Shown here: positions 465 through 14,958 of the stretch, in pieces
Position numbering within the stretch: the stretch's first letter is position 1
Layout: each line of letters starts with the position of its first letter
NCBI GenBank assembly: GCA_944380065.1
Contig: CALWGM010000114.1
Coordinates: forward strand, 31,082 to 95,081
Origin: an uncultured Lachnospiraceae bacterium
Lineage (GTDB): Bacteria > Bacillota > Clostridia > Lachnospirales > Lachnospiraceae
Direction: 5' to 3'
DNA: 64,000 nt
Made by a program: the position numbers and the translations under genes
The notes under the pieces: generated by a model
Databases searched by the model: none
The model's input: only the letters and a program-made list of their open reading frames with translations
What the model was told of the DNA's origin: nothing

Positions 465-489
465 ACATAAGTCAGCAAACAGCAGACAG

Positions 490-561
490 GCTGATGTGGC
501 TCAGAGGTAGAGCACTTCCTTGGTAAGGAAGGGGTCACGGGTTCAATTCCCGTCATCAGCT
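490..561 (+). tRNA. tRNA-Thr (anticodon GGT), CCA not encoded
   Basis: Cloverleaf: acceptor stem GCTGATG/CATCAGC, D-arm GCTC..GAGC, anticodon arm CTTCC-TTGGTAA-GGAAG, T-loop GGTTCAATTCC. Confidence 0.97.
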
Positions 562-575
562 TTTTATCTGATCGG

Positions 576-1954: not shown

Positions 1955-2236
1955 TTACCTGGTTATGGAACTGTAGAAATCAATCATCAGCCCGTCCAGA
2001 ATTATTGTTAAAATGATCCATGGCCATCCCAGCGCCAGCACACCCACCAACTTGCAGATCACAAAGCTGATGGTGAATCCCATCGGCACCCAGAGCGATA
2101 CGGCAAGCATCAGGATCAGCCATCCGATCCCCGGTTCAAATGTTCCCTGTACCTTCCAGACAATAGCAAAAATAATCTTCGCAACAATGCCAGCGTTCAG
2201 CCGTATAGCCTGCAGACATCTGTCTCTCATTTTCAT
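1955..2236 (-). CDS. Small multi-pass membrane protein (93 aa)
   Basis: RBS GGGAGG just upstream of the ATG; about three hydrophobic helices; has its own promoter-like element at 2286-2313. Confidence 0.75.
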   Translation of the reverse strand: MKMRDRCLQAIRLNAGIVAKIIFAIVWKVQGTFEPGIGWLILMLAVSLWVPMGFTISFVICKLVGVLALGWPWIILTIILDGLMIDFYSSITR

Positions 2237-2276: not shown

Positions 2277-2324
2277 CTGTATCAGAATATAACATACCCT
2301 GTTTGGATTTCAGGAGGGGGGAGC
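2277..2324 (-). repeat. Copy 1 of a degenerate 48-bp promoter-containing direct repeat
   Basis: 36/48 identical to 13982-14028 by manual alignment; shared blocks CTGTAT, ATATAACAT, TTTCA and GAGGGGGGAGC, the last three at identical spacing. Confidence 0.6.
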
Positions 2325-2366
2325 AGGGCACACCTCTATCCGGAAAATGCGCCCTGCTCTCTCCTC
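2314..2366. terminator. GC-rich 16-bp hairpin just downstream of the 814-aa gene
   Basis: GAGGGGGGAGCAGGGC (2314-2329) pairs with GCCCTGCTCTCTCCTC (2351-2366); no strong T-tract. Confidence 0.4.
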
Positions 2367-2381
2367 TTCTTTGGGTATTGC

Positions 2382-4826
2382 TCAGGCCATACCCTCGATC
2401 TCCGCAGCGAAGAAATCTTTATCGCTGTCATGCTTAAACTCTAATATTCTTACCCTGAGCAGGCTGTTTTCCCGGATCGTACCGGCCGCCCCGGTATCCT
2501 GCCTGTAGCGGCTTACCTTCCGCGGGGAGATATTCACTTCATAACCGCTATCTGTAAGCTTTCCCCGGATACCTCCATTCGACTTTATTTTTGTGCATTT
2601 CATCTCCAGGCACTGCCCGATCAGCGTCTCTGCGTCGCTCTGGCTGATAGCCGGAGCAAGATAGCGAAGAGCCAGATCCCTGCCGGCCAGAATTTGGTTC
2701 AGGATTCCGACGGTCGTCCCGTCTCCCACCAGAAGCGTATACATCTGCCGCAGATTTTCCCTCTCCGGTGAATGCTGATCCGCATGGCCGGCCAGATTCC
2801 GGATTTCCCTGATCCTGTTGATATCAGCCGCCATCTTTCCCCACCATGCGCTCCAGTTCCCGGGAATCACACCGCAATACGCACGGAAAGCAGTATCTGC
2901 GCACAATTCTGCAAGAAACGTCTTTTTCGCACGGATCAGATGGACGAAATTCCCTAAAAATGTCCTTGACACATCCATATGCCGAAAATTATCCCGGGCA
3001 TCCGGAATATTCAGGCGCTTCCCCAGACTGTACTCCGCCAGGTCGGGGATCCCCTGGAACAGGCCAAACAGGTTGTCCCGGAGCGCCTGTTCCGCGGCTT
3101 TTCCGTAAAGAATCAGCTGCGCCGAAAAATCATCAAACTCAATTCCCGGCATGGACAGCGCCTCCTCCACAACGACGGCCATTTTGATATAAAACTGACA
3201 CCGCTCACTTTGTTTGTCCAGCAGATCATCTTTCAGATCCTGATGGATTCTGTTTCTGGCCAACAGGAATCTTTCATCCAGCGTCTGCAGTTCCGTTTCC
3301 GTGATCTCAATGATATCCTGATATTCATCCACCTGCACATCCTGGAAAATCTGCTGACCGGCTTCCGCGAACGCCTGGTCAACGCGCCTGTCATGCTCGG
3401 CCGCGTCCGTGACAGGCCGGTTCATCTCTATCCGGATCTTTTCCCGGTCAAACTGGCTGATCTGCCTCTGCAGGCGTCTGCCAATTAAAAGCCCTGATTC
3501 TTCCCGACTGCTGCCGCCAAGCAGCTGCAGAAAATCTTTCACAGATATTCCCTGTACAATCTGCATATTTTCCACGGAAACATTTTGTGACTCATCAACA
3601 GCGCCTTCCTGATAATATTTATCGATAATATAGGTATTTCCTCCCCGGCCGGTATCTGCACTGCGCTTTCTCTCAATCTCCGGTAAGGGATTCTGGTTGG
3701 CGGCATCCGCCATCCTCCCCTCCTGACAGTAATACTGAAACAGCAGGGAATTAAACCTCACCAGGAAATCCCTGCAGACAGGATTGCCATTCTGATCCTG
3801 GCAAACCGCTTTCCGGAATAACCCCCGGTGCAGCAGGGCGCTTACCGCCGTTTCATATGCGGATCCTGCAAAGTCATAACAGGCGTATTCGGCATTGGAT
3901 GAAGCGTTTGACGCCAGCAGGCGCATCACATCCAGCTGCGCGTCCGTCAGCAATTTGCACCAGCCGTCCATAACAATCTCACATTGTGCCCGCGCCTCCC
4001 TGACCGCTTCCTTTACCTGGATCCTGCCATTATGAGCCGCTCCGCTGGCATACAGCTGCCTGGCCAGAATATTTACAAACCTGGGGATTCCGCCGCTTAA
4101 CCGGAAGATCTGTGTCTTCATGGCATCCGGTATCATGATCCCGCCGCCTTCCTGCTTCCGGTACAGGTAAACACCGATATCATCTTCTGCGAAACAGGTC
4201 ATCTCTATGGGATTTGTAAACTTCTGCAGGAAATAGGAACCGCGGATATCCCTGGGCAGGGAATCCTTCGACAGATCATAATTGGTCGCCACCACACACT
4301 GGATCTGGCCGCTCTCAATCAGGCTCCTCAAACAGTCATGATGCGCCTGCGTGACAGAGTTCGACATGGTGAACAGTTCAAAATAATCCATGATAATCAC
4401 CGCCATATATCCCCAGTTATCATGAAGCACCTGCATAAAATTCTGAAATCTGGCCTGTCCGGGCATTGCAGAAATCTCCCCGGTCAGTTCATGAATCTCC
4501 GAAAGGAGTTCCCTGTCGCGGATCAGCTGGTTCAGAGACAGTTTCAGACGGTCCGCCAGATACTCACAGATATCGTTACCATCGCTTTTATTGGACAGAT
4601 CCGCAAAGTATATTAACTTTTTTCTGGTTTCTGCCATTTTCCTCCTGTATTCCGGCGTAAATGCAGTTCTTAAGAGGGAAGTTTTTCCGCTTCCCTCCGG
4701 ACCGACAATATATGTATTGGTTCTGGTACCCGCACTGTTCCGAAGTATCTCGATCAGCGTCTGATCCCCGACCCACTCATCGGCTGACTCCACCGGAAAA
4801 TCATCAATAAACGGATTAAATCCCAT
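2382..4826 (-). CDS. STAND-family NTPase - HEPN RNase - S1-like RNA-binding fusion (814 aa); putative defence effector
   Basis: Walker A GPEGSGKTS (aa 42-50); Walker B VIIMDYFE; SGGIPR (GxP) motif and winged helix. HEPN helix YGKAAEQAL (from aa 574) and RNLAGH (R676-H681). C-terminal OB/S1-like fold from aa 736. RBS AGGAGG overlaps the upstream stop codon. Confidence 0.8.
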   Translation of the reverse strand: MGFNPFIDDFPVESADEWVGDQTLIEILRNSAGTRTNTYIVGPEGSGKTSLLRTAFTPEYRRKMAETRKKLIYFADLSNKSDGNDICEYLADRLKLSLNQLIRDRELLSEIHELTGEISAMPGQARFQNFMQVLHDNWGYMAVIIMDYFELFTMSNSVTQAHHDCLRSLIESGQIQCVVATNYDLSKDSLPRDIRGSYFLQKFTNPIEMTCFAEDDIGVYLYRKQEGGGIMIPDAMKTQIFRLSGGIPRFVNILARQLYASGAAHNGRIQVKEAVREARAQCEIVMDGWCKLLTDAQLDVMRLLASNASSNAEYACYDFAGSAYETAVSALLHRGLFRKAVCQDQNGNPVCRDFLVRFNSLLFQYYCQEGRMADAANQNPLPEIERKRSADTGRGGNTYIIDKYYQEGAVDESQNVSVENMQIVQGISVKDFLQLLGGSSREESGLLIGRRLQRQISQFDREKIRIEMNRPVTDAAEHDRRVDQAFAEAGQQIFQDVQVDEYQDIIEITETELQTLDERFLLARNRIHQDLKDDLLDKQSERCQFYIKMAVVVEEALSMPGIEFDDFSAQLILYGKAAEQALRDNLFGLFQGIPDLAEYSLGKRLNIPDARDNFRHMDVSRTFLGNFVHLIRAKKTFLAELCADTAFRAYCGVIPGNWSAWWGKMAADINRIREIRNLAGHADQHSPERENLRQMYTLLVGDGTTVGILNQILAGRDLALRYLAPAISQSDAETLIGQCLEMKCTKIKSNGGIRGKLTDSGYEVNISPRKVSRYRQDTGAAGTIRENSLLRVRILEFKHDSDKDFFAAEIEGMA

Positions 4827-4838
4827 TTTCTGCTCCTC

Positions 4839-7800
4839 CTAAAAATCATACCATTCACTGTCATCACTGGTTTCTGCCACGGCAGGCCGGCTTTCTGCGC
4901 TTCCTGTTTCCGGCTGCCGGATCTGGAAAATATCCGGTTCTTCCGGCACCTGTCCGTACTTTGAACTGTTTGTCCTGAAGTATCTTCTGTAGATGTCCAG
5001 TTCAAACTTATACAACTGGGAATCAATCGGATGGACAGAGAGAATCTTCAGCCCGGTCAGGACTTTGACCACCCGCTGTATCTCCACCCTGGATATGCTC
5101 ATCAATTCGGAAAGCTGATTCAGATGGACATATGCATCTTTCTTGGCCGCCAGGCTCTGCATGGCGTCAACCAGATCTCTCTCCTCCCCTTCCTCACAGC
5201 CTTCATAAAACTGTTTGCACCACAGATCCGTGATGACTTTCGGAATACTCTGCCGCACATCGGAAGGATATACCACACACCGCCCGTTTTCTTTTGCCCG
5301 TTCCACCGCTTCCTCGCCCAGTAATTTTGTGTGCCACACCAGGCCGCCTGCATAATCCCAGATCCATTTCACAGCCTCCTCTGTGATAATCAGCTGCGGA
5401 TATGGACGGTACGGCAGATACAGCAATTCTTTCGCATCATTTTCCGGAAGCTTCCCAACCTCCAGCACCTGCTTTCCAAATCTCTGGAACAGCTGGTTTT
5501 TCCGGTCGCCCTTCAGGTTATAGCGGATCAGCCAGTTGGAACCGCAGATCACCAGGTGAACTGCCTTCCTGCAGGCATAGCTGTTCAGTATTTCGCTGAC
5601 GGAACCAAATAAGCTGTCCAGATTTCTGTGATATTTCATCTGGCTTTGCTCCACGCGCTCAAACAGGCGGTCTATCTCATCAATGATCAGAAACAGGCCA
5701 TACTCTCCGATGAGTTCCTTCACATCCAGATAAAACAGACTCAGCTTTTCCGGCTGCCGGTCAGCGCAGAAATACCCCAGACTCCAGGTATGCTTCAGTT
5801 CCTCCCAGGCATTTTCTGTTTTCAGGGCCGGGAGCTTTCTTTCCACGGTGTCGATCACCCGCTCAATAAACACGTACTGAATCGGCTCGGTAGCCGGAAT
5901 CGACTGGCAGTCTGTCTTGACACAGATGATATGTCCCTTCTTTTCCCCTATGTAAGCTTCCAGGTAATTCAAAAGCGACGTCTTGCCGGTTCTCCGCACC
6001 CCGTACATTAAAGCGCTCCTGTAATCTTCAAAAGAGTCCCCCGCCACCAGGCTGCGCAGCATTGCCGTTTCATTCCTTCGCCCTACAAAGTCGGGACTGT
6101 ATATCTCGCCGGTCTCCTCATCCACTTTGAACATGATGCCGTCTGCATACGCCGTCAAAAGCCCTGTAGGATAATCCGGTTCCGCCCCTTCCTCAAGAAA
6201 CAGGGTACCCTTGCATACCGTGGACGAAAGAGTCTTATCCGCATAATGAAAACCTGCTGTCACCACATACTCTAACTGTTCACAGGTGTGGTCTGTGCTG
6301 TAATCCAGTTCAAATACCGCCTTTCCCCCCGGGGAAAGCTTTTTCAGGATATACTGGTTACTGCTGCTGCCGTCACTGTAAGCCGCCTGGATAATGATTT
6401 CTTCGGCATCAATCTTTCCGATATTATGCACTTCCCCAAAAAGACTGCCATAATAACGCTGGCTCCCCTGATTCAGGATCTCGAATGAAAGTACCGGCCG
6501 CTGATCCAGCTCATTGATCTCATCATTGATCAGCTTCTGTACTTTGTTTTTCATTTCCATCCAGCGGTTCGTCTCAATTTCTTCCAGACGGAGATAATTC
6601 ACAGAAAGTTCTTCCCTTAAAACCTCCTGGTTCTCCTGCGCTGTGGACATATAACAATTTCTCAGACCGTCCAGGACGCTGAAAATCTGCGCCACACACG
6701 CGCCGATTAATCCATCAGCAATCAGTCCCCGTACATACTGCAGCAGCCCCCGGTTCTCTCCATAGCAATCCAGCAGGCTTTTCAGATCTCCGGACGACTT
6801 CACCAGGATCAGAAGTCCTTCCTGGACGGTTCGTCTCGCCTCTTCAGCCCCTTCCCCGCTGGGATCCCTGTATTTTAAGATTCTTACCAGATCAAACAGG
6901 ATCTGATGAGCGCCGGCATAGTTCCCTTCTGCCAGAGCTGCATAGTAACAATCACAGCCATACAGCAGCAGGGCGTTGTTGAGTTCCTCCCCGGAGGGAC
7001 GATCCGCCAGATAATGCTGACAGATGATTTGGGAAAGCTGCAGCTTATCCTGCATATTGGCCGCAAGATTCTGGATTTTCCCGTGCCTTATCAGAACATC
7101 TGCCAGATCTCCCTCATACCTGGCCGGAAGGATCCCTCTTGCGAACGCCGGAATTTCTTCCTCCGTCATCACTTTTTCCCGGATTGCCTCTTCTGCCGGC
7201 AGATCCCACAGGGAGGGATCTTTTTGCTCAAACGCCTTCGGATCCGGTCTCCTGGACTCCAATAAAAGCAGCTTTCTGGGCCTGTTTCCGCTGATAGCGG
7301 AATTGCCCGCAAGCGCTCTTACGCTCTGGAGATATTCTGTATTATACTGCTCCCTGACATCTGAGTTGGTCAGCGCGTAGCTCTCTGTAATCGCACCGTC
7401 TCTATTCCTGGGATTATATGGATACTTCACCACATAGCAGAAATATGCCTTTTCCACTTCGTTCGCCCGGTTCCCAATCAGCTCTAACTTTTCCTCATCC
7501 TGAACAGACGGATCAAAGGCAGTCAGAATATCCTCTGCCAGTTTCCGGTTTCCTTTACCAAAGAAGCGGGAAAGCCTCAGGACTTCATCACAGCGCGGGG
7601 AATAGAGCAGAGTCAGGATCATATTCAGACAGCTCCAGGTATGGAAATCCCGGCGTTTGATCTTCTCCCGCACCGCACGGTCATTGGAAAAGGCCGCCGT
7701 GATCCGATATCTGGCTTCATAGAGCTCACGGCACCTGATTCTGTCTGTTGTATTCAGCGCTTTTTTATAATCCGGCCGGCCAAAAACATCCGGATACAGC

Positions 7801-10800
7801 TCCAGGCCACGGCTCAGCAGATTCAGGGCGCTGTAGAAAACAGAGGCATACGCATCATTCCCCTTTTCAAAATAGGAATCTGCCTTTTTCAGTAACTGCG
7901 CCTGGAAATACGGATGTTTGACGAGGGCGCCGATCATCCACACCATCGCAAACAAAAGATCCGTATCCGTTTTTTTCTTCAGCGCGGAATCGATATACAG
8001 CTTCTCCCATTTTTCGCTCATGCTGTAATCTTCAAAGGGATGCCGCAGAATCTTTTCCAGAGATCCAAATTCTGTCTGCTGTTCACACCTTGCAAAACAG
8101 CCTTCCCTGTAAAAACGAATGACAAATTCTATTTCCTGATTTGTTTCTCTGCTGCCGCCCACCGCCATTTGACGCAGCCAGTCCAGAAGTTCCTTCCGCT
8201 CTTCTTCCGGGGTCTCCAGCAACACTCCGAACAGGCTCCGGATCAGCCCTCCATGATTGCCGGGATCCGCCTGAACCCTGATTTCAAAGGAAATATCTTC
8301 TTTATCCTCCTTCCAGGCATGCAAAATCAGCGGCTTCCAGTTTCCGGTAATCGCTCCCAGATACGCTTCCGTAAGCATCCGGATCTGTTTTTGACTCCTG
8401 TTCATGAATGAGTCTGCAACTTCCCTGCGCTTTTCACTGATAGCAGCGCCCTTCGCATATGTCTTATCCGAATATGCGTGGAACAGATAATATTCTCCGG
8501 TATCTTTTGAAAAATCATAATCTTCAATCTGGCCGGTCCACTGGTTCACAATACAGAGAGCATCCAGTGTAGCCAGCATATATGCATAATCCTGCTGTCT
8601 TCTTCTGTAGTAGGAGGCAGCGCCTTTCGATGGCCGCAACCGCACCAGCTCCCGCAGGCACCGGTGGAGTTCCGGAATAAAACCGGCCGGATCTGTACAG
8701 CACAGATGGAACAGCGCGTGATATGCCCCGTAATCATTTTTAAACATGGAAAGGATATGTCCGATCACATGAACCGTTTCCTTTACCTGCCCGTTTACAA
8801 TACCCGCGTCTGTAATTTCATTCAGCTGCTGAATACTCGGCATATTGCCGTCCGGCATAATCAGCCGGAGCATCATCCGGTTTTCCGTATTATCCGCCCA
8901 TTCGCGCAGTTCGTCCGTATCTTTCCGGGCAAGCTCATCCACCAGTTCTTTGTAGTTCATGGGATTCAGAACATCCTTCAGCTGCCCAAGGATCTCCCCT
9001 GCCTCAGAAATTCTTCCGTCCGCCATAAGATTGGCAGCCAGCACCACTCCCAGATTACAATTCTTTCCAAAAATTTCTGATTTGTAAAATTCAATGCCGT
9101 AATTCAAAGCCTCTGCATTTCCGCTCTTTTCTGCAATCAGAAGGGATGCCCGGATCAGGGAATGTCCCGGTTCGCTTCCCTTATACCTGACGCAGACAGC
9201 TTTCACAAGTTCCGGCATTTTTGCGTCATTTCCCAGACAGGATAAGTATTCAGGATTTTCAGTCAGCCTGTGTTCCATATATTTCCGGCAGTTTTCCACA
9301 GTCTGATCATCTTTGGCATTCGCCCAGTTCAGCAGGGTCTGCAGCAGCAATTCCTTCTGCTCATACTTTTCACAGTAGGAGGCACATCCTTCACATCCAT
9401 CCGCATTGTAAATGCTGTTGATATACAGCAGCTTGCTGTAAGCAACCGGGTTATCCTGGATAGGCAGCGAAACACTCTGTTCCCAGACTTCCGGATTGCC
9501 AAGATTGCTGTACAGCTTCCGGATCAGTTCATTACTGTCATCCTCTGAGAGCATCCTCGTCTGGCTGGTATCCGCTGCAGCCTCCGCAGCCCCCGGCTGC
9601 AGTTTCGGACTGACGCTGGACGCAAATTTCATGTATTCAAAAATCTCATCCATTCTCAGTTCAGTCAGGACTTTCTTAAACAGATCAAAATAGCTGGGTA
9701 TGTTATAGCCCCAAGTCGTCTTTAAAAGATTATTAATCCTGCCTCCGGTCCGGCTGTCCATATTATCCAGCGGATACTCCACCAGCATACGCAGAATATA
9801 CTCTGCATGATTGGTCTGGTTTCTTTCGCATTTCAGGAAATACAGACACAACAGCCCCTCCACTGTATGATATGCCCTGACATGGGAAATACAGCGCTCC
9901 TCTGCAGAATCAAGAATTTCTTCCGGAAAGGCTCCCCGCATCAGGGTATCCGTATACAGGGTATATACACATCTCTGCAGTTCAGCATGCCCCGTCAGTT
10001 CCCTCTCATTTCCCAGAGAGTGGAAAAACAGTACCAGTTCTTTTGCCAGTCCATCTGTCCCGGCCAGACTGACCAGGCTGTGATACACATGCGGATTTGT
10101 AAGAATTCTTACATCTTTCAGCAGCGGAAGCAGCGGAAGCACCTGCGCCTCATCCTGCGGAAAATCTGAGAGAATGCGGCCTATCCTGTCGCCTTTCTCT
10201 TCCGCATCGCCTGCGTCCTCTGACAAAATCTGCCGGATCTCCAGAAGATCAATCTCTCCTTCTAAATTCTTTACCGCATCGCCATAGATTACCCGCAGCC
10301 GCCTCAGTTCCTCCAGCGTAAAGTCCGGAAGCCGCTCCGTCACCTGGCTGAGGAATGCCGCCGACAGATCTTCCAGTTCCCCGACGCCCAGCACATGATA
10401 CAGGTAAAGCGCCAGTTCCGGATGATGCGTTTCGACAGCCTGGCGCTGGATGGACAGCAGGCTCGTTTCACTTAAACTTCCCTCGCCTGTGACAATCGTC
10501 CGGATCACATCTGCGTCAAATACTCTGATCCACTGATCAAACAGCTGTATCAGGATCCGATTCACATCTTCCTGCCTCCCGCATTCATACAGCGTATGGA
10601 TCAGCAGTGCCCCCCAGGCCTGATACCATGCTGCTTCTGATTTTGCATCATCAGGATTCGTAATCTGCGGCATGGGAATCCGATCGTGATCCGCAACGGT
10701 CTTCAGTTTGGCAATAAACAGCTGCATCATCCTGCCCCAGCTGTTTTCTTTCACTGCACATTCGGAGGCAAATTTAAGATAATTTTCTCTCTTAAATAAA

Positions 10801-13800
10801 AGATCCAGATATAATCCCTCATTTTCATCTCTGAGCGCAGGATACTCCTGCATCAGGGACAATAAAGCAGATTCATCTCCTGTATCCAGATAAATATCAC
10901 GCAAAAGATGGACTGCCTGCAAGTCAGGAACCGCAAATTTCGCAAACATTTCTGCCGCGTTCTGATAATTTCCCGCCATAGCATAAATACGGCCGGCAAT
11001 ACTGCACGCGTCCATCCCATGCGGGTAAGCCTCTGCCTGATACACGCCTGCGATCGAAGACGCAAACGGATCCCGGACTCCCAGCTTCTTCGCAGCCTCA
11101 GAATTGGCGTATTCTCTCAGGGAGCGTTCCAGACAGATGATACTCCTCAGCAGCGGATCATTCAGAAGCAGACTTAACCTCCTGATCCGGGAGTAGAACG
11201 CGGAGACTTCTCTGTCCTCACTGCTCTCCTGTCCGGAGACAGCGTCGCTGACCCATGTCTGTGTACCGGCCATGAAGGCCAGGCATTCCTGAAGATTTGC
11301 GCGGATATAATCCATGGCAGATACCGGATCCTCTTTGATTCGTGCCAGTAAATAGAGATGCCTGCAGGATCCGTTCTGAGAATACTTTGCGCGGAAGCAT
11401 TCATACAATTTGCAGCATTCATCCCATCTGCCTTCCTCAGCAAGAAGAACCATCAATTCCGCCGCAGGAACATCCCGGTTATCGGCAATTCCCTTCCACA
11501 TGTAATATTCCGCCAGGGAATGTTTATTTTTCTGATATCGGTAAAATCTCCGCCCGATATTGACAGCCGTGTCCCCCTCGCCAAATGGGCTGTCTTCTTT
11601 CGTGCTGCAGGCTTTCCTGATTCTGGCAGCTTCCTCTTCTGAATAGCCGAGTTCGCTTAATTTTGCCTCCTGCAGGACAAATTCGCGAATCCTGTCGGTA
11701 TCACCCTCACAGACCGCCTGTTCAAAATCATTCATTTCGCCGGCAGATGCAAAACATTCCAGACGTTCTGCAAATTTCTGCTTTTCTTCAGGATCCAGAA
11801 TCTGATCCGGCAGCAGCAGACACTGGCTAATGACCTCAGGCTGGTACATTAAGAAACAATGCTCGCTTAAATATACCCGGGCCGCAGACGGATCGCTTTC
11901 ACACAGGATTCCCAGATACGCAGCCTGCTCTTTCAGGCTGGTATGGTTTTCACTGGCATAGTTATGAAACAGATACATATACGCTTCTTTTTTCCCTTCA
12001 TGCCGGTATAATTCCAGCAATGCATGGAAGCTCTTTTCTTCATCAAACAGAAGACCCATGATATCATAGCACTCAGCCAGCCCCCCATCATTTCCGATCA
12101 CCCGGTAAAGACGCTCTGCCGCCGCCCGGAAAGTCATGTCCGCAGGCAGATCTCCCTGTTTCAGCACTGCCATTCCCGCCTCTGTGCAGAAAGGATCTGT
12201 CGGGTTCTCTGCAAAGTAATCCCGTAAAGCCTCCCGTTCACCAAAGACCAGCATCTTCGCCACTGTATTTTCACACAGGCACTTTGTTATTTTGTGGATT
12301 GCATAAAGATCTCTGCCGATGGTATTGATCTTATACAGAAGTTCTTCCGGATCGGGTCTTTCGACAGTTTCCCCGCCGCCTGCGTCGGTATCCTCAAACG
12401 CAGCCCGGCACTCTCTGACCCGGCTTTCGACCGCATCCAGCCCGGAAAGATATTCCCGCTCCTCCGGCTGGGTTCCCACTAATATTTTTGCGGCGATCCG
12501 TTCGGAGGTAAATTCCACAAAATGAGAAGTCACCCGCTCGATTTTTTCCATAACCCCCTCATCCACAATACTTTTTGCGGCCATGACATCTCTCAGATCT
12601 TTGTAATATCCCAGCATGGACAGCAGTACGCCATAATCCACCGCTTCATGGATCCCGGCAGATACAGAAGCCATACGCTCCTGGTCCCTGCGCGGCGTAG
12701 AAATATCCTGCTCTGCCACCACAGAATACAGAACAAAAAATTCATGCGTTTTTCCGGCAATCTCGGAGAAATCAGAAATTGCTTTTCCCGCCTGTTCCAG
12801 TAAAATATTTTTTCCGTCCGCCAGTTCACGGATCTGCCGTATCGTACTCTCTTCCGGATAAGGCCGCTGCAGGACGCCATAATACAGCTGACGCAATTTT
12901 ACACAGTCTGCTTCAAACGCTGCGATCCGTCCGGCGATTGCTTCACCGGGAATCTTCCCGCTGCCCAGGCAATCCAGATACTGCTGCAGAACCGGCGCCA
13001 GCTGTTCCATTTTTTCGCCGACCTCCCCCGCCTTTTCATCCAGCACCGAACAGGGAACTCTGTGAACCGCGGACTTCAGATGTTCTTTCACCCAGCAGCC
13101 CAGGTCTGTCCCGTCATCTGCACAGCAGAAACCTCCCTGGGCAAATGTCTGCTTTGAACCGTCCAGGTTTTTGGGATTCGGGACTAAAATACAGTAAATA
13201 CTCTCATCGCTGCCGCTTTTCTTTAAGCCTGTTTCAAAAGCGAGCCGCGGCTCTTCCTCCTCCATGCCGTCAATCAGGAAGCTGTCCATCCCAAGAAGGA
13301 TCTTTGACATTTGGAGAGCGATCGACGTTTTGGCCATGTCTTCTGTCAGTTCTTCATTAAAAAGGCGCAGCTTTTTTATATTCACGTTCCACCAGTTCAT
13401 ATAAGCAGAAACATGCATTTGCTGTATCTCTGCCAGCTCTGATTTCTGGGGAACCGGTTTAGAAGCCGGTTTGGGTACTGGTACCGGTATCGCATCGTCT
13501 TCTTTTCCATGGGAAAGCCACAAATTGTCTTCCGACACTTTAAAATCCGGAAACACAGCCTGAATCCATTCTCCCAGGCGCATCCCGTCTGCCAGAAGTT
13601 TATAATTAATATTCTCCGGCGAATTGTTCAAAAGATTCGGGATGGTTGACATCAGGATCTTACCTTTCTGTAAAATCTCGTTTTCGAGAATCATCCATGC
13701 CTTCGCCACCCTGTCGTCCGCCATACGGAGTGTTTCATAGCCGTTATTCCCAATCACTGAAAATTCCGGAAAATGGTCTGCAATCCACTTTTTCAGCCCC

Positions 13801-13934
13801 GACGCCGGATACAGCTCCAGGCTGATATCCTCCTGCCCAAAAACAGTTTTTAACGCACTCAGTTTAATAAAACCGCTCCTGCGGATCCGGTTTGACAGTT
13901 TTCGGACAATCATATTTTTTTCTGCTTCTGTCAT
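4839..13934 (-). CDS. Giant (~3031 aa) protein: 2x OST-HTH/LOTUS-like, DUF3825-like, TPR-like helical repeats, Ig-like, C-terminal STAND NTPase and wHTH
   Basis: Uninterrupted 9.1-kb ORF; RBS AGGAGGGGG precedes ATG 13934. FVGRRNE precedes Walker A GVRRTGKTS (5976-6002); Walker B FLIIDEID (5670-5693); LVICGS sensor; YAGGLVW motif. N-terminal LOTUS-like pairs and an FETGL..IY..VPN motif. Confidence 0.8.
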   Translation of the reverse strand: MTEAEKNMIVRKLSNRIRRSGFIKLSALKTVFGQEDISLELYPASGLKKWIADHFPEFSVIGNNGYETLRMADDRVAKAWMILENEILQKGKILMSTIPNLLNNSPENINYKLLADGMRLGEWIQAVFPDFKVSEDNLWLSHGKEDDAIPVPVPKPASKPVPQKSELAEIQQMHVSAYMNWWNVNIKKLRLFNEELTEDMAKTSIALQMSKILLGMDSFLIDGMEEEEPRLAFETGLKKSGSDESIYCILVPNPKNLDGSKQTFAQGGFCCADDGTDLGCWVKEHLKSAVHRVPCSVLDEKAGEVGEKMEQLAPVLQQYLDCLGSGKIPGEAIAGRIAAFEADCVKLRQLYYGVLQRPYPEESTIRQIRELADGKNILLEQAGKAISDFSEIAGKTHEFFVLYSVVAEQDISTPRRDQERMASVSAGIHEAVDYGVLLSMLGYYKDLRDVMAAKSIVDEGVMEKIERVTSHFVEFTSERIAAKILVGTQPEEREYLSGLDAVESRVRECRAAFEDTDAGGGETVERPDPEELLYKINTIGRDLYAIHKITKCLCENTVAKMLVFGEREALRDYFAENPTDPFCTEAGMAVLKQGDLPADMTFRAAAERLYRVIGNDGGLAECYDIMGLLFDEEKSFHALLELYRHEGKKEAYMYLFHNYASENHTSLKEQAAYLGILCESDPSAARVYLSEHCFLMYQPEVISQCLLLPDQILDPEEKQKFAERLECFASAGEMNDFEQAVCEGDTDRIREFVLQEAKLSELGYSEEEAARIRKACSTKEDSPFGEGDTAVNIGRRFYRYQKNKHSLAEYYMWKGIADNRDVPAAELMVLLAEEGRWDECCKLYECFRAKYSQNGSCRHLYLLARIKEDPVSAMDYIRANLQECLAFMAGTQTWVSDAVSGQESSEDREVSAFYSRIRRLSLLLNDPLLRSIICLERSLREYANSEAAKKLGVRDPFASSIAGVYQAEAYPHGMDACSIAGRIYAMAGNYQNAAEMFAKFAVPDLQAVHLLRDIYLDTGDESALLSLMQEYPALRDENEGLYLDLLFKRENYLKFASECAVKENSWGRMMQLFIAKLKTVADHDRIPMPQITNPDDAKSEAAWYQAWGALLIHTLYECGRQEDVNRILIQLFDQWIRVFDADVIRTIVTGEGSLSETSLLSIQRQAVETHHPELALYLYHVLGVGELEDLSAAFLSQVTERLPDFTLEELRRLRVIYGDAVKNLEGEIDLLEIRQILSEDAGDAEEKGDRIGRILSDFPQDEAQVLPLLPLLKDVRILTNPHVYHSLVSLAGTDGLAKELVLFFHSLGNERELTGHAELQRCVYTLYTDTLMRGAFPEEILDSAEERCISHVRAYHTVEGLLCLYFLKCERNQTNHAEYILRMLVEYPLDNMDSRTGGRINNLLKTTWGYNIPSYFDLFKKVLTELRMDEIFEYMKFASSVSPKLQPGAAEAAADTSQTRMLSEDDSNELIRKLYSNLGNPEVWEQSVSLPIQDNPVAYSKLLYINSIYNADGCEGCASYCEKYEQKELLLQTLLNWANAKDDQTVENCRKYMEHRLTENPEYLSCLGNDAKMPELVKAVCVRYKGSEPGHSLIRASLLIAEKSGNAEALNYGIEFYKSEIFGKNCNLGVVLAANLMADGRISEAGEILGQLKDVLNPMNYKELVDELARKDTDELREWADNTENRMMLRLIMPDGNMPSIQQLNEITDAGIVNGQVKETVHVIGHILSMFKNDYGAYHALFHLCCTDPAGFIPELHRCLRELVRLRPSKGAASYYRRRQQDYAYMLATLDALCIVNQWTGQIEDYDFSKDTGEYYLFHAYSDKTYAKGAAISEKRREVADSFMNRSQKQIRMLTEAYLGAITGNWKPLILHAWKEDKEDISFEIRVQADPGNHGGLIRSLFGVLLETPEEERKELLDWLRQMAVGGSRETNQEIEFVIRFYREGCFARCEQQTEFGSLEKILRHPFEDYSMSEKWEKLYIDSALKKKTDTDLLFAMVWMIGALVKHPYFQAQLLKKADSYFEKGNDAYASVFYSALNLLSRGLELYPDVFGRPDYKKALNTTDRIRCRELYEARYRITAAFSNDRAVREKIKRRDFHTWSCLNMILTLLYSPRCDEVLRLSRFFGKGNRKLAEDILTAFDPSVQDEEKLELIGNRANEVEKAYFCYVVKYPYNPRNRDGAITESYALTNSDVREQYNTEYLQSVRALAGNSAISGNRPRKLLLLESRRPDPKAFEQKDPSLWDLPAEEAIREKVMTEEEIPAFARGILPARYEGDLADVLIRHGKIQNLAANMQDKLQLSQIICQHYLADRPSGEELNNALLLYGCDCYYAALAEGNYAGAHQILFDLVRILKYRDPSGEGAEEARRTVQEGLLILVKSSGDLKSLLDCYGENRGLLQYVRGLIADGLIGACVAQIFSVLDGLRNCYMSTAQENQEVLREELSVNYLRLEEIETNRWMEMKNKVQKLINDEINELDQRPVLSFEILNQGSQRYYGSLFGEVHNIGKIDAEEIIIQAAYSDGSSSNQYILKKLSPGGKAVFELDYSTDHTCEQLEYVVTAGFHYADKTLSSTVCKGTLFLEEGAEPDYPTGLLTAYADGIMFKVDEETGEIYSPDFVGRRNETAMLRSLVAGDSFEDYRSALMYGVRRTGKTSLLNYLEAYIGEKKGHIICVKTDCQSIPATEPIQYVFIERVIDTVERKLPALKTENAWEELKHTWSLGYFCADRQPEKLSLFYLDVKELIGEYGLFLIIDEIDRLFERVEQSQMKYHRNLDSLFGSVSEILNSYACRKAVHLVICGSNWLIRYNLKGDRKNQLFQRFGKQVLEVGKLPENDAKELLYLPYRPYPQLIITEEAVKWIWDYAGGLVWHTKLLGEEAVERAKENGRCVVYPSDVRQSIPKVITDLWCKQFYEGCEEGEERDLVDAMQSLAAKKDAYVHLNQLSELMSISRVEIQRVVKVLTGLKILSVHPIDSQLYKFELDIYRRYFRTNSSKYGQVPEEPDIFQIRQPETGSAESRPAVAETSDDSEWYDF

Positions 13935-13981
13935 AGAAATACCCCCTCCTGTTTGATGGTACTGATGAAAGCCTTCCAATC

Positions 13982-14172: not shown

Positions 14173-14958
14173 ATGGCAGCATATAAGGTTGAAATTTGCG
14201 GAGTCAATACTTCCACGCTCCCGATCTTGAAAGAGGAAGAAAAGACAGAACTTTTCCGGAAAATCAGACAGGGGGACCGGTCCGCCAGGGAAGCCTACAT
14301 CAAGGGAAATCTCCGGCTGGTCTTAAGCGTAATCCGGCGGTTTGCCTCCAGCAATGAAAATGTGGACGACCTGTTCCAGATCGGCTGCATCGGCCTGATC
14401 AAATCCATCGACAACTTCGATCCCACCCTGGACGTGAAATTTTCCACCTACGCCGTCCCCATGATCGTGGGGGAGATCCGCCGTTATCTCCGGGATAATA
14501 ACAGTGTCCGCGTCAGCCGCTCCCTGCGCGACACGGCTTACAAAGCCATGCAGGCCAGGGAACAGATGATGCGGACATCCAATTCTGAACCGACGATCCA
14601 CGATATTGCAAAAGAAACCGGCATTCCCACCGAGGATATTGTCTACGCCCTGGACGCCATCCAGACCCCGGTCAGCCTCTATGACCCCATCTACACCGAC
14701 GGCGGGGAACCCCTCTACGTGATGGACCAGATCAGCGACAAGAAAAACCGGGAGGAGCGCTGGGTGGAAAACCTCTCCTTAAGCGACGCCATGAAGCGGC
14801 TCAACGACCGTGAAAACCGCATCATCCGTCTCCGTTTTTTTGAGGGCAAAACCCAGATGGAGGTTGCCTCCGAGATCCACATCTCCCAGGCCCAGGTCAG
14901 CCGCCTGGAAAAAAACGCCCTCAAAACCATGAAAAACTACCTGACCATAAACTGCTGA
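14173..14958 (+). CDS. sigG: RNA polymerase sporulation sigma factor SigG
   Basis: N-terminus YKVEICGVNTSTLPIL, NLRLVLS, DDLFQIGCIGL..SIDNFD, FSTYAVPMIVGEIRRYLRD, C-terminal TQMEVA..I.ISQAQVSRLEK. Confidence 0.96.
   Translation: MAAYKVEICGVNTSTLPILKEEEKTELFRKIRQGDRSAREAYIKGNLRLVLSVIRRFASSNENVDDLFQIGCIGLIKSIDNFDPTLDVKFSTYAVPMIVGEIRRYLRDNNSVRVSRSLRDTAYKAMQAREQMMRTSNSEPTIHDIAKETGIPTEDIVYALDAIQTPVSLYDPIYTDGGEPLYVMDQISDKKNREERWVENLSLSDAMKRLNDRENRIIRLRFFEGKTQMEVASEIHISQAQVSRLEKNALKTMKNYLTINC

Follow-up and report, generated by a model that had tools for sequence, protein, structure and literature searches.

The gene pair and its NTPase modules

The window analyzed here, a stretch of 64,000 nucleotides (nt) from an uncultured Lachnospiraceae bacterium (contig CALWGM010000114.1, positions 31,082 to 95,081), carries on its minus strand a gene for an 814-amino-acid (aa) protein that directly follows a gene for a giant protein (Table 1). 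The 814-aa protein joins an N-terminal STAND NTPase to a HEPN-like helical domain and a terminal S1-like OB domain. We propose, with a probability of roughly 0.6, that it is the effector of a conserved two-gene STAND abortive-infection system, with a HEPN RNase coupled to an S1-type OB fold. Public records name the protein and its relatives, from Oscillospiraceae and Candidatus Anaerofilum metagenome-assembled genomes, only 'ATP-binding protein'.

By its sequence, the 814-aa protein begins with a P-loop NTPase that is intact and belongs to the nSTAND1/AAA_16 type. Pfam matches are confined to this part of the protein, where nSTAND1 (31.5 bits against a cut-off of 27.1), AAA_16 (E 2.8e-7) and AAA_22 fall across aa 9-185. 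In a full-length alignment of 23 homologues (28-61% identity), G45, G47 and K48 of Walker A did not vary, nor did F149. A strongly degenerate NTPase was ruled out by this invariant Walker A motif and by the nearly invariant acidic residue of Walker B, D147, beside which E150 or a neighboring glutamate is present in sub-clades. NCBIfam returned nothing past the P-loop, and neither Pfam nor NCBIfam assigned a family to aa 281-504, a region with a short conserved motif, QGIS..(D/E)xLxLL, near aa 425-437. Sensor repeats of the TPR, WD40 or LRR kind were absent from the Pfam matches; the HEPN-like and OB domains fill the C-terminus. A real gene among the overlapping plus-strand open reading frames (ORFs) at 2772-3488 was considered and rejected; they are shadows, since relatives conserve the minus-strand protein from one end to the other. 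Just past the stop codon of the 814-aa gene lies a G+C-rich inverted repeat (2321-2359, minus strand; GAGCAGGGC ... GCCCTGCTC, loop of ~21 nt), which is followed by a C-run rather than a T-run and went unflagged in a terminator scan.

The giant protein spans ~2,600 aa without solid family matches, then an AAA_16 domain at aa 2631-2774, its sole solid Pfam match, and a winged-helix-like C-terminus. The 814-aa gene begins 12 nt past the giant's stop codon, and the junction, read from the letters, looks translationally coupled. In all six other loci examined, a giant gene likewise stands immediately upstream of the homologue, which with the window makes seven contexts. These six loci sample homologues down to ~29% full-length identity; in five of them the giant measures 2,769-3,200 aa, and in the sixth the contig ends within it and leaves 1,528 aa. 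From one homologous locus to the next, the outer flanks are unrelated.

Within the window, the ATPase modules of the giant and the 814-aa protein resemble each other only faintly (E 0.009). In a genome from another genus of the same family, a one-chain protein of 2,794 aa (L039:1607-9991) combines a giant-type N-terminal region, an ATPase and a C-terminal HEPN domain with the motif ARTIRNSSAHG. Its ATPase resembles that of the giant (26% identity to giant aa 2656-2908 over ~290 residues, E 1e-8), not that of the effector, and it has neither a second STAND module nor an OB domain. To judge from its sequence, the 2,794-aa protein resembles a natural single-chain form of the gene pair. Because this fusion joins them, the giant type and the HEPN domain of the 814-aa type are probably functionally linked.

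The N-termini of the giants carry tandem units of ~65 aa (window 12930-13979, minus strand; L001:834-1883; L004:399-1448; L039:1607-2806). Two homologous giants also showed weak, sub-threshold Pfam matches to DUF3825 (E 3e-4 and 1e-2), which the giant of the window does not.

Table 1. Positions of the gene pair, its domains and motifs, and neighboring genes in the window.
Feature	Position (nt)	Strand	Basis
Upstream partner (giant) gene, up to 3046 aa, start codon uncertain	4839..13979	-	ORF call, Pfam
Gene junction: the giant gene's TAG stop overlaps AGGAGGAG, the Shine-Dalgarno sequence 6 nt ahead of the 814-aa ATG	4833..4841	-	Sequence read
814-aa ORF: STAND NTPase, winged-helix/linker, HEPN-like domain, S1-like OB domain	2382..4826	-	ORF call and translation, homologues
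P-loop NTPase module, nSTAND1/AAA_16 type, aa 9 to ~280	3987..4802	-	Pfam, alignment
Walker A, GPEGSGKT, aa 42-49	4680..4703	-	G-x-G-K invariant, 23 homologues
Helical/winged-helix region and poorly conserved linker, aa 281-504	3315..3986	-	Full-length alignment
HEPN-like helical domain, aa 505-726	2649..3314	-	AlphaFold2, hhalign
Helix 2 of the HEPN-like domain, aa 568-592, acidic E579 (YGKAxEQxLRD)	3051..3125	-	Conservation, DUF4145 alignment
R676-N677-L-A-G-H681, putative Rx4H catalytic motif at the end of helix 3	2784..2801	-	Conservation, model
S1-like OB domain, aa 732-814; conserved K-x-NGG-I-R-G and VNISPRKV	2385..2633	-	Model, Foldseek
ORFs between tRNA-Thr and the cassette (one Uma2-family)	719-1276, 1273-1677, 1955-2236	-	Family search
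tRNA-Thr	489-562	+	
Sigma-70-family gene, other side of the cassette	14173-14958		

Signature and fold of the C-terminal tail

A word-indexed search with the tail of the 814-aa protein (aa 520-814) returned 26 proteins, nearly all of ~800 aa, with 35-62% identity over the tail. Invariant columns include S568, L571, Y574, K576, E579, Q580, L582, D584, W662, I675, R676, N677, H681 and P687; among these, E579, Q580, I675, R676, N677 and H681 are unchanged in 23 of 23 full-length homologues. We then extended the alignment to 115 domains, including distant relatives on helicases and on other STAND proteins. E579 was kept in 114 of the 115, R676 in 113, H681 and W662 in 112 each, and N677 in 110, so the RNxxxH motif singled out by the first-pass annotation is conserved in homologues. 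Judged by this alignment, a chance RNxxxH would not survive 14-60% identity across differing architectures.

An AlphaFold2 model of aa 505-730 (pLDDT 89.9, pTM 0.87) opens with a conserved leading helix (aa 510-527), followed by helix 1 (aa 541-557) and the E579-bearing helix 2. An insert of ~65 aa (aa 594-657), with a hairpin and two short helices, separates helix 2 from helix 3 (aa 658-680; model 154-176), which ends in R676-N677. H681 sits in the loop after it, ahead of helix 4 (aa 689-700). HEPN domains have been described as bearing a conserved acidic residue on helix 2 and frequent inserts between helices 2 and 3 (Anantharaman et al. 2013), and the order of secondary-structure elements in our models agrees with that description. 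The first-pass annotation had quoted a HEPN helix, SAQLILYGKAAEQALR, at aa 568-583 and the motif IREIRNLAGH with R676-N-L-A-G-H681 encoded by nt 2801-2784; translation places both exactly there. The region it drew around them, 2385-3150, does hold the two conserved motifs, but its start at nt 3150 (~aa 560) cuts off helix 1 and the helix preceding it.

The last 83 residues are predicted to fold as beta1-beta2-beta3-alpha-beta4-beta5 in a model of aa 505-814 (pLDDT 88.3), with strands at 235-243, 249-253, 259-262, 285-296 and 299-309 and a helix at 264-274 in model numbering. A barrel of five strands whose helix stands between the third and the fourth is the arrangement that defines an S1-like OB fold. 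Foldseek returned S1-type OB folds almost exclusively, among them the S1 domain of RNase II (E 9.2e-4), NusA S1, vaccinia K3L, IF1, DHX8 S1 and Rpb7, at probabilities of 0.97-1.0; TM-scores reached 0.67 on small targets (IF1, TMt up to 0.67). Structure prediction and structural search thus agree on the S1-like fold that had been proposed to follow the HEPN domain. With E values up to 10 allowed, none of 22 homologues matched a Pfam S1 (PF00575) or CSD model, and because of this we call the modeled domain S1-like by fold only. Of its two best-conserved segments, K-x-NGG-I-R-G covers the loop between strands 1 and 2 together with strand 2, and VNISPRKV starts on strand 3 and reaches into the helix; conserved basic residues occur in each.

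A family-specific hidden Markov model found the OB domain in 43 of 100 full-length homologues. About 25 of the 100 stop right after the HEPN-like domain, and others carry a tail of 75-100 aa, maybe a diverged OB copy. Because about a quarter of homologues do without it, the OB domain appears to be an accessory and not part of the catalytic core. Its dispensability would also fit a modulatory role, in which it acts as a sensor or auto-inhibitor that binds an activating nucleic acid (phage single-stranded DNA or RNA) or occludes the HEPN domain until assembly. OB folds bind single-stranded DNA as readily as RNA, and the HEPN defense protein DARNA is switched on by single-stranded DNA at a non-catalytic domain (preprint). 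The closest folds here, however, are RNA-binding S1 domains of RNases and of translation and transcription factors, and we regard a sensing or inhibitory OB domain as a possibility on the unlikely side. Such a role would touch a single step and fits with the abortive-infection effector that we propose.

The HEPN assignment and its alternatives

To place the helical domain, we built family alignments from genome matches to three accepted HEPN Pfam families and compared them by hhalign. The 115-sequence tail family aligned with DUF4145 at P 7.6e-5 (probability 62%), pairing the YGKAxEQ helix with RRaLE, where E579 falls on the LE, and the RNxxxH helix with GNxxxH. Its motif was also in register with Swt1 (P 5.2e-3) and RiboL-PSP-HEPN (P 6.8e-3). 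For comparison, the accepted families scored P 5.9e-4 (DUF4145 and Swt1), 1.1e-3 (RiboL-PSP-HEPN and Swt1) and 0.11 (DUF4145 and RiboL-PSP-HEPN) against one another. By these P-values the tail family lies within the divergence range of accepted HEPN families, closest to DUF4145. Depth mattered: a shallow alignment of 22 close homologues reached just P 0.0047 on the motif, and the diverse 115 sequences were needed for 7.6e-5. Pfam itself gave weak matches to DUF4145 in 3 of 22 homologues (best E 0.021) and to RiboL-PSP-HEPN in one homologue, plus a distant relative at E 0.002. The E...R-N-x3-H signature, the element order, these weak Pfam matches and the in-register profile matches to three families support the HEPN call of the first-pass annotation, and the helical domain is very probably a divergent HEPN family covered by no Pfam model.

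DUF4145 (PF13643, clan CL0291; Anantharaman et al. 2013) shares with the tail family an acidic helix (RRaLE against GKAxEQ) and a post-insert helix that ends in (R)xxGNxxxH against RxxRNxxxH here, and both families terminate helicases and NTPases of conflict systems. It differs in having a glycine at the canonical Rx4H position, where the 814-aa family has an arginine in addition to a second, upstream one (R673). The 814-aa family also has a much longer insert between helices 2 and 3 and extra flanking helices.

A HEPN domain need not be a nuclease. HEPN domains of nucleotidyltransferase systems and of sacsin set a precedent for a ligand- or nucleic-acid-binding or scaffold module, which would make the 814-aa protein a regulator or adaptor. 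DUF4145-type HEPN domains have little direct biochemistry behind them, and some HEPN families are catalytically inactive (Anantharaman et al. 2013, table). Inactive lineages usually lose the arginine or the histidine, though, whereas E, R, N and H are each kept in 110-114 of 115 domains here. On helicases and STAND proteins the domain moreover takes the terminal 'effector' place, and it is joined to an RNA-binding-type OB fold. We consider a non-nuclease role improbable.

It is also quite improbable, in our judgment, that the domain is no HEPN at all but an unrelated helical bundle with another chemistry or a structural role, its profile matches being a motif-driven coincidence. Several results do weigh in that direction. 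The hhalign probabilities run from 6 to 62%, so that even the best is modest, and DUF4145 was picked for comparison after weak matches to it had been seen. None of the Pfam HEPN models reached its gathering score; that of PF13643 (23.1 bits) was reached by no member of the tail family, PF13643 did not match the 814-aa protein, and a DUF4145 scan of the window's whole genome missed the gene. The long insert has no counterpart in DUF4145. The structural search, which bore out the OB part of the tail, gave no significant HEPN match for the helical part alone: against PDB and BFVD nothing fell below E 0.1, the best PDB match was a fumarase (E 0.49), and a profile search of PDB sequences produced chance-level matches only. 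The closeness of E579 to R676 and H681 in space is, for its part, assumed from the topology of the model.

Against coincidence stand three independent HEPN profiles that align the motif in register, with P as good as or better than among accepted families, while reversed DUF4145 or RiboL-PSP controls gave P 0.5-0.9. The element order, the acidic residue, the insert and the motif positions agree with the published HEPN description. Non-significant Foldseek matches included Csm6 (4rgp), 3jrt and RnlA (6y2p, TMq 0.32) at E 3.8-4.5 and an RNase LS-like protein (TMq 0.36, E 4.8); the two function-named matches with the top TM-scores were HEPN RNases, namely RnlA and the RNase LS-like protein. The HEPN assignment of the helical domain rests on its sequence signature, its topology and moderate profile-profile scores.

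Distribution, proposed mechanism and related systems

Searched exhaustively by profile, 1.84 billion representative proteins yielded only 105 matches at E <= 1e-3, and the HEPN family of the 814-aa tail is therefore rare. In the distant matches, the helical domain is C-terminal, on other STAND NTPases as well as on DEAD-box and superfamily 1 (SF1) helicases, including helicases of 1,300-1,500 aa (P0108, DEAD-box; P0115, SF1; the set comprises P0108, P0115, P0123 and P0128). Because distant copies end helicases, unrelated NTPase chassis appear to have recruited the same effector domain. By analogy, this C-terminal position on helicases and STAND proteins is that of effector domains in conflict systems. 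In a sample of 400 genomes of the class, the domain turned up in only two, the window's own and the genome with the 2,794-aa fusion.

A strong HEPN_Swt1 domain (E down to 2e-39) was seen separately on ORFs of ~1,100-1,150 aa in 15 of 301 genomes of the phylum (L048-L060); these may be HEPN-NTPase-type proteins of the 2013 census.

PADLOC gave nothing but an 18-bit P-loop match to mad8. Searches of plasmid and phage collections by tblastn found no copies, so no carriage by mobile elements can be claimed. The neighborhood is not a dense defense island: what lies between tRNA-Thr and the cassette is only a gene for a putative endonuclease of the Uma2 family (E 3e-35), along with two small ORFs that matched no family. 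The defense role that we propose rests on architecture and distribution, by analogy with known systems. A module that serves this lineage in RNA processing or regulation, as a housekeeping or developmental function tied for instance to sporulation, would suit a chromosomal cassette that has no integrase near it, no plasmid or phage copies and no PADLOC match, and that adjoins sigma-70-family and cell-wall genes, but it is very improbable given that other genera of the same family lack the cassette, that flanking genes are wholly different between homologous loci, that cassette G+C (0.50-0.515) is slightly under that of the rest of the window (0.544 +/- 0.025), and that STAND-plus-terminal-nuclease architectures are typical of conflict systems.

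At one homologous locus (L041:12630-18219), the pair is followed by a gene for an SNF2-type helicase (1,089 aa), a 377-aa gene without a family match and a DUF2201 gene, which may be a further defense module adjoining the pair.

For the abortive-infection system we envisage the following sequence. The ~3,000-aa giant, with its own STAND-type ATPase and huge non-catalytic region, would sense an invader cue. NTP-dependent assembly would then recruit or co-oligomerize the 814-aa protein, with the giant upstream STAND protein probably the partner that drives assembly. Its HEPN domains would thereby be paired into a composite active site, as HEPN RNases generally need, while the OB domain would hold single-stranded RNA at or near that site. 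Cleavage of tRNA, rRNA or mRNA would stop growth and abort the infection. RNase activity, oligomerization-driven activation, a defense role and an RNA target are all properties that we infer. The NTPase-oligomerization switch and S1-based substrate selection put forward by the first-pass annotation are reasonable proposals. HEPN domains usually dimerize and in this way build bipartite catalytic centers, and among the anti-phage HEPN RNases there are several that cleave tRNA in its anticodon loop (DARNA preprint); by analogy with PrrC, ApeA, DARNA and Cas13, a tRNA target would be plausible here.

More tentatively, and with less than even odds in our estimate, the two proteins may work as a sensor and executor STAND pair resembling paired or helper NLRs. 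Through the tandem units at its N-terminus, the giant would detect a molecule of the invader, possibly RNA, and nucleate a hetero-oligomer, and the HEPN-S1 protein would be active only inside it. To our knowledge, a division of labor between two active STAND NTPases has not been demonstrated experimentally in prokaryotic immunity.

An Avs protein is one polypeptide, with its effector at the N-terminus and its sensor repeats at the C-terminus. The pair shares with Avs and bacterial NLR-like proteins the union of a STAND NTPase with a nuclease effector, thought to be activated by oligomerization on a phage component. In contrast to Avs, the effector is C-terminal here, the 814-aa protein has no sensor repeats, and sensing would presumably fall to the giant STAND protein; the PADLOC Avs models gave no match to the 814-aa protein, and architecture and gene pairing differ too. 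With RnlA, PrrC, ApeA, DARNA, Tha, Csm6 and Cas13 the protein would share, by analogy, Rx4-6H chemistry, regulation by dimers or oligomers and the logic of abortive infection, but none of these is a STAND NTPase with an S1 tail. Neither PADLOC nor the profile search of PDB sequences detected sequence similarity to characterized anti-phage HEPN RNases.

Closer in architecture are the fusions of HEPN, STAND ATPase, TPR and S1 in Npun_F6454, MED222_16016 and Desac_1927, and the Bacillus proteins with an N-terminal HEPN, a STAND module and a cold-shock-like OB domain (Anantharaman et al. 2013). These hold the same three blocks in one polypeptide, and they too are only predicted conflict effectors. 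By their descriptions, they differ in having TPR sensor repeats or an N-terminal HEPN, and the Npun_F6454-type entry appears, from the table of that census, to belong to Swt1/CXorf38-related families. The 814-aa protein has the order NTPase, HEPN, OB, no repeats, a DUF4145-like HEPN domain and a separate giant partner. A mobile two-gene nSTAND2 operon, in which an inactive STAND protein carries a GT4 or HEPN effector, has also been predicted (Kaur, Iyer, Burroughs and Aravind 2021, eLife). There, as here, two STAND genes are adjacent and one bears an effector at its end, which in that operon varies and is often a HEPN RNase, and a hetero-oligomer was predicted. The NTP-binding motifs of the effector-bearing STAND protein are eroded in that system, whereas Walker A GxxGxGK(T/S) is invariant in 23 of 23 homologues here; no ~3,000-aa partner or S1 domain was described, and the Pfam matches here are to nSTAND1/AAA_16. 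The pair is best described as a variant on HEPN, STAND and S1 architectures already catalogued in 2013.

If our reading is true, the pair would be an uncatalogued anti-phage system overlooked by current defense finders, matched by neither PADLOC nor a Pfam HEPN model, and the known HEPN families would gain a divergent member that comes with its own RNA-binding OB domain. The pair would further allow a tractable study of how a signal passes from one STAND NTPase to a second, nuclease-bearing one, the same logic as in the paired or helper NLRs of plants and animals, with the 2,794-aa natural fusion as a ready comparison for why the system would have split in two.

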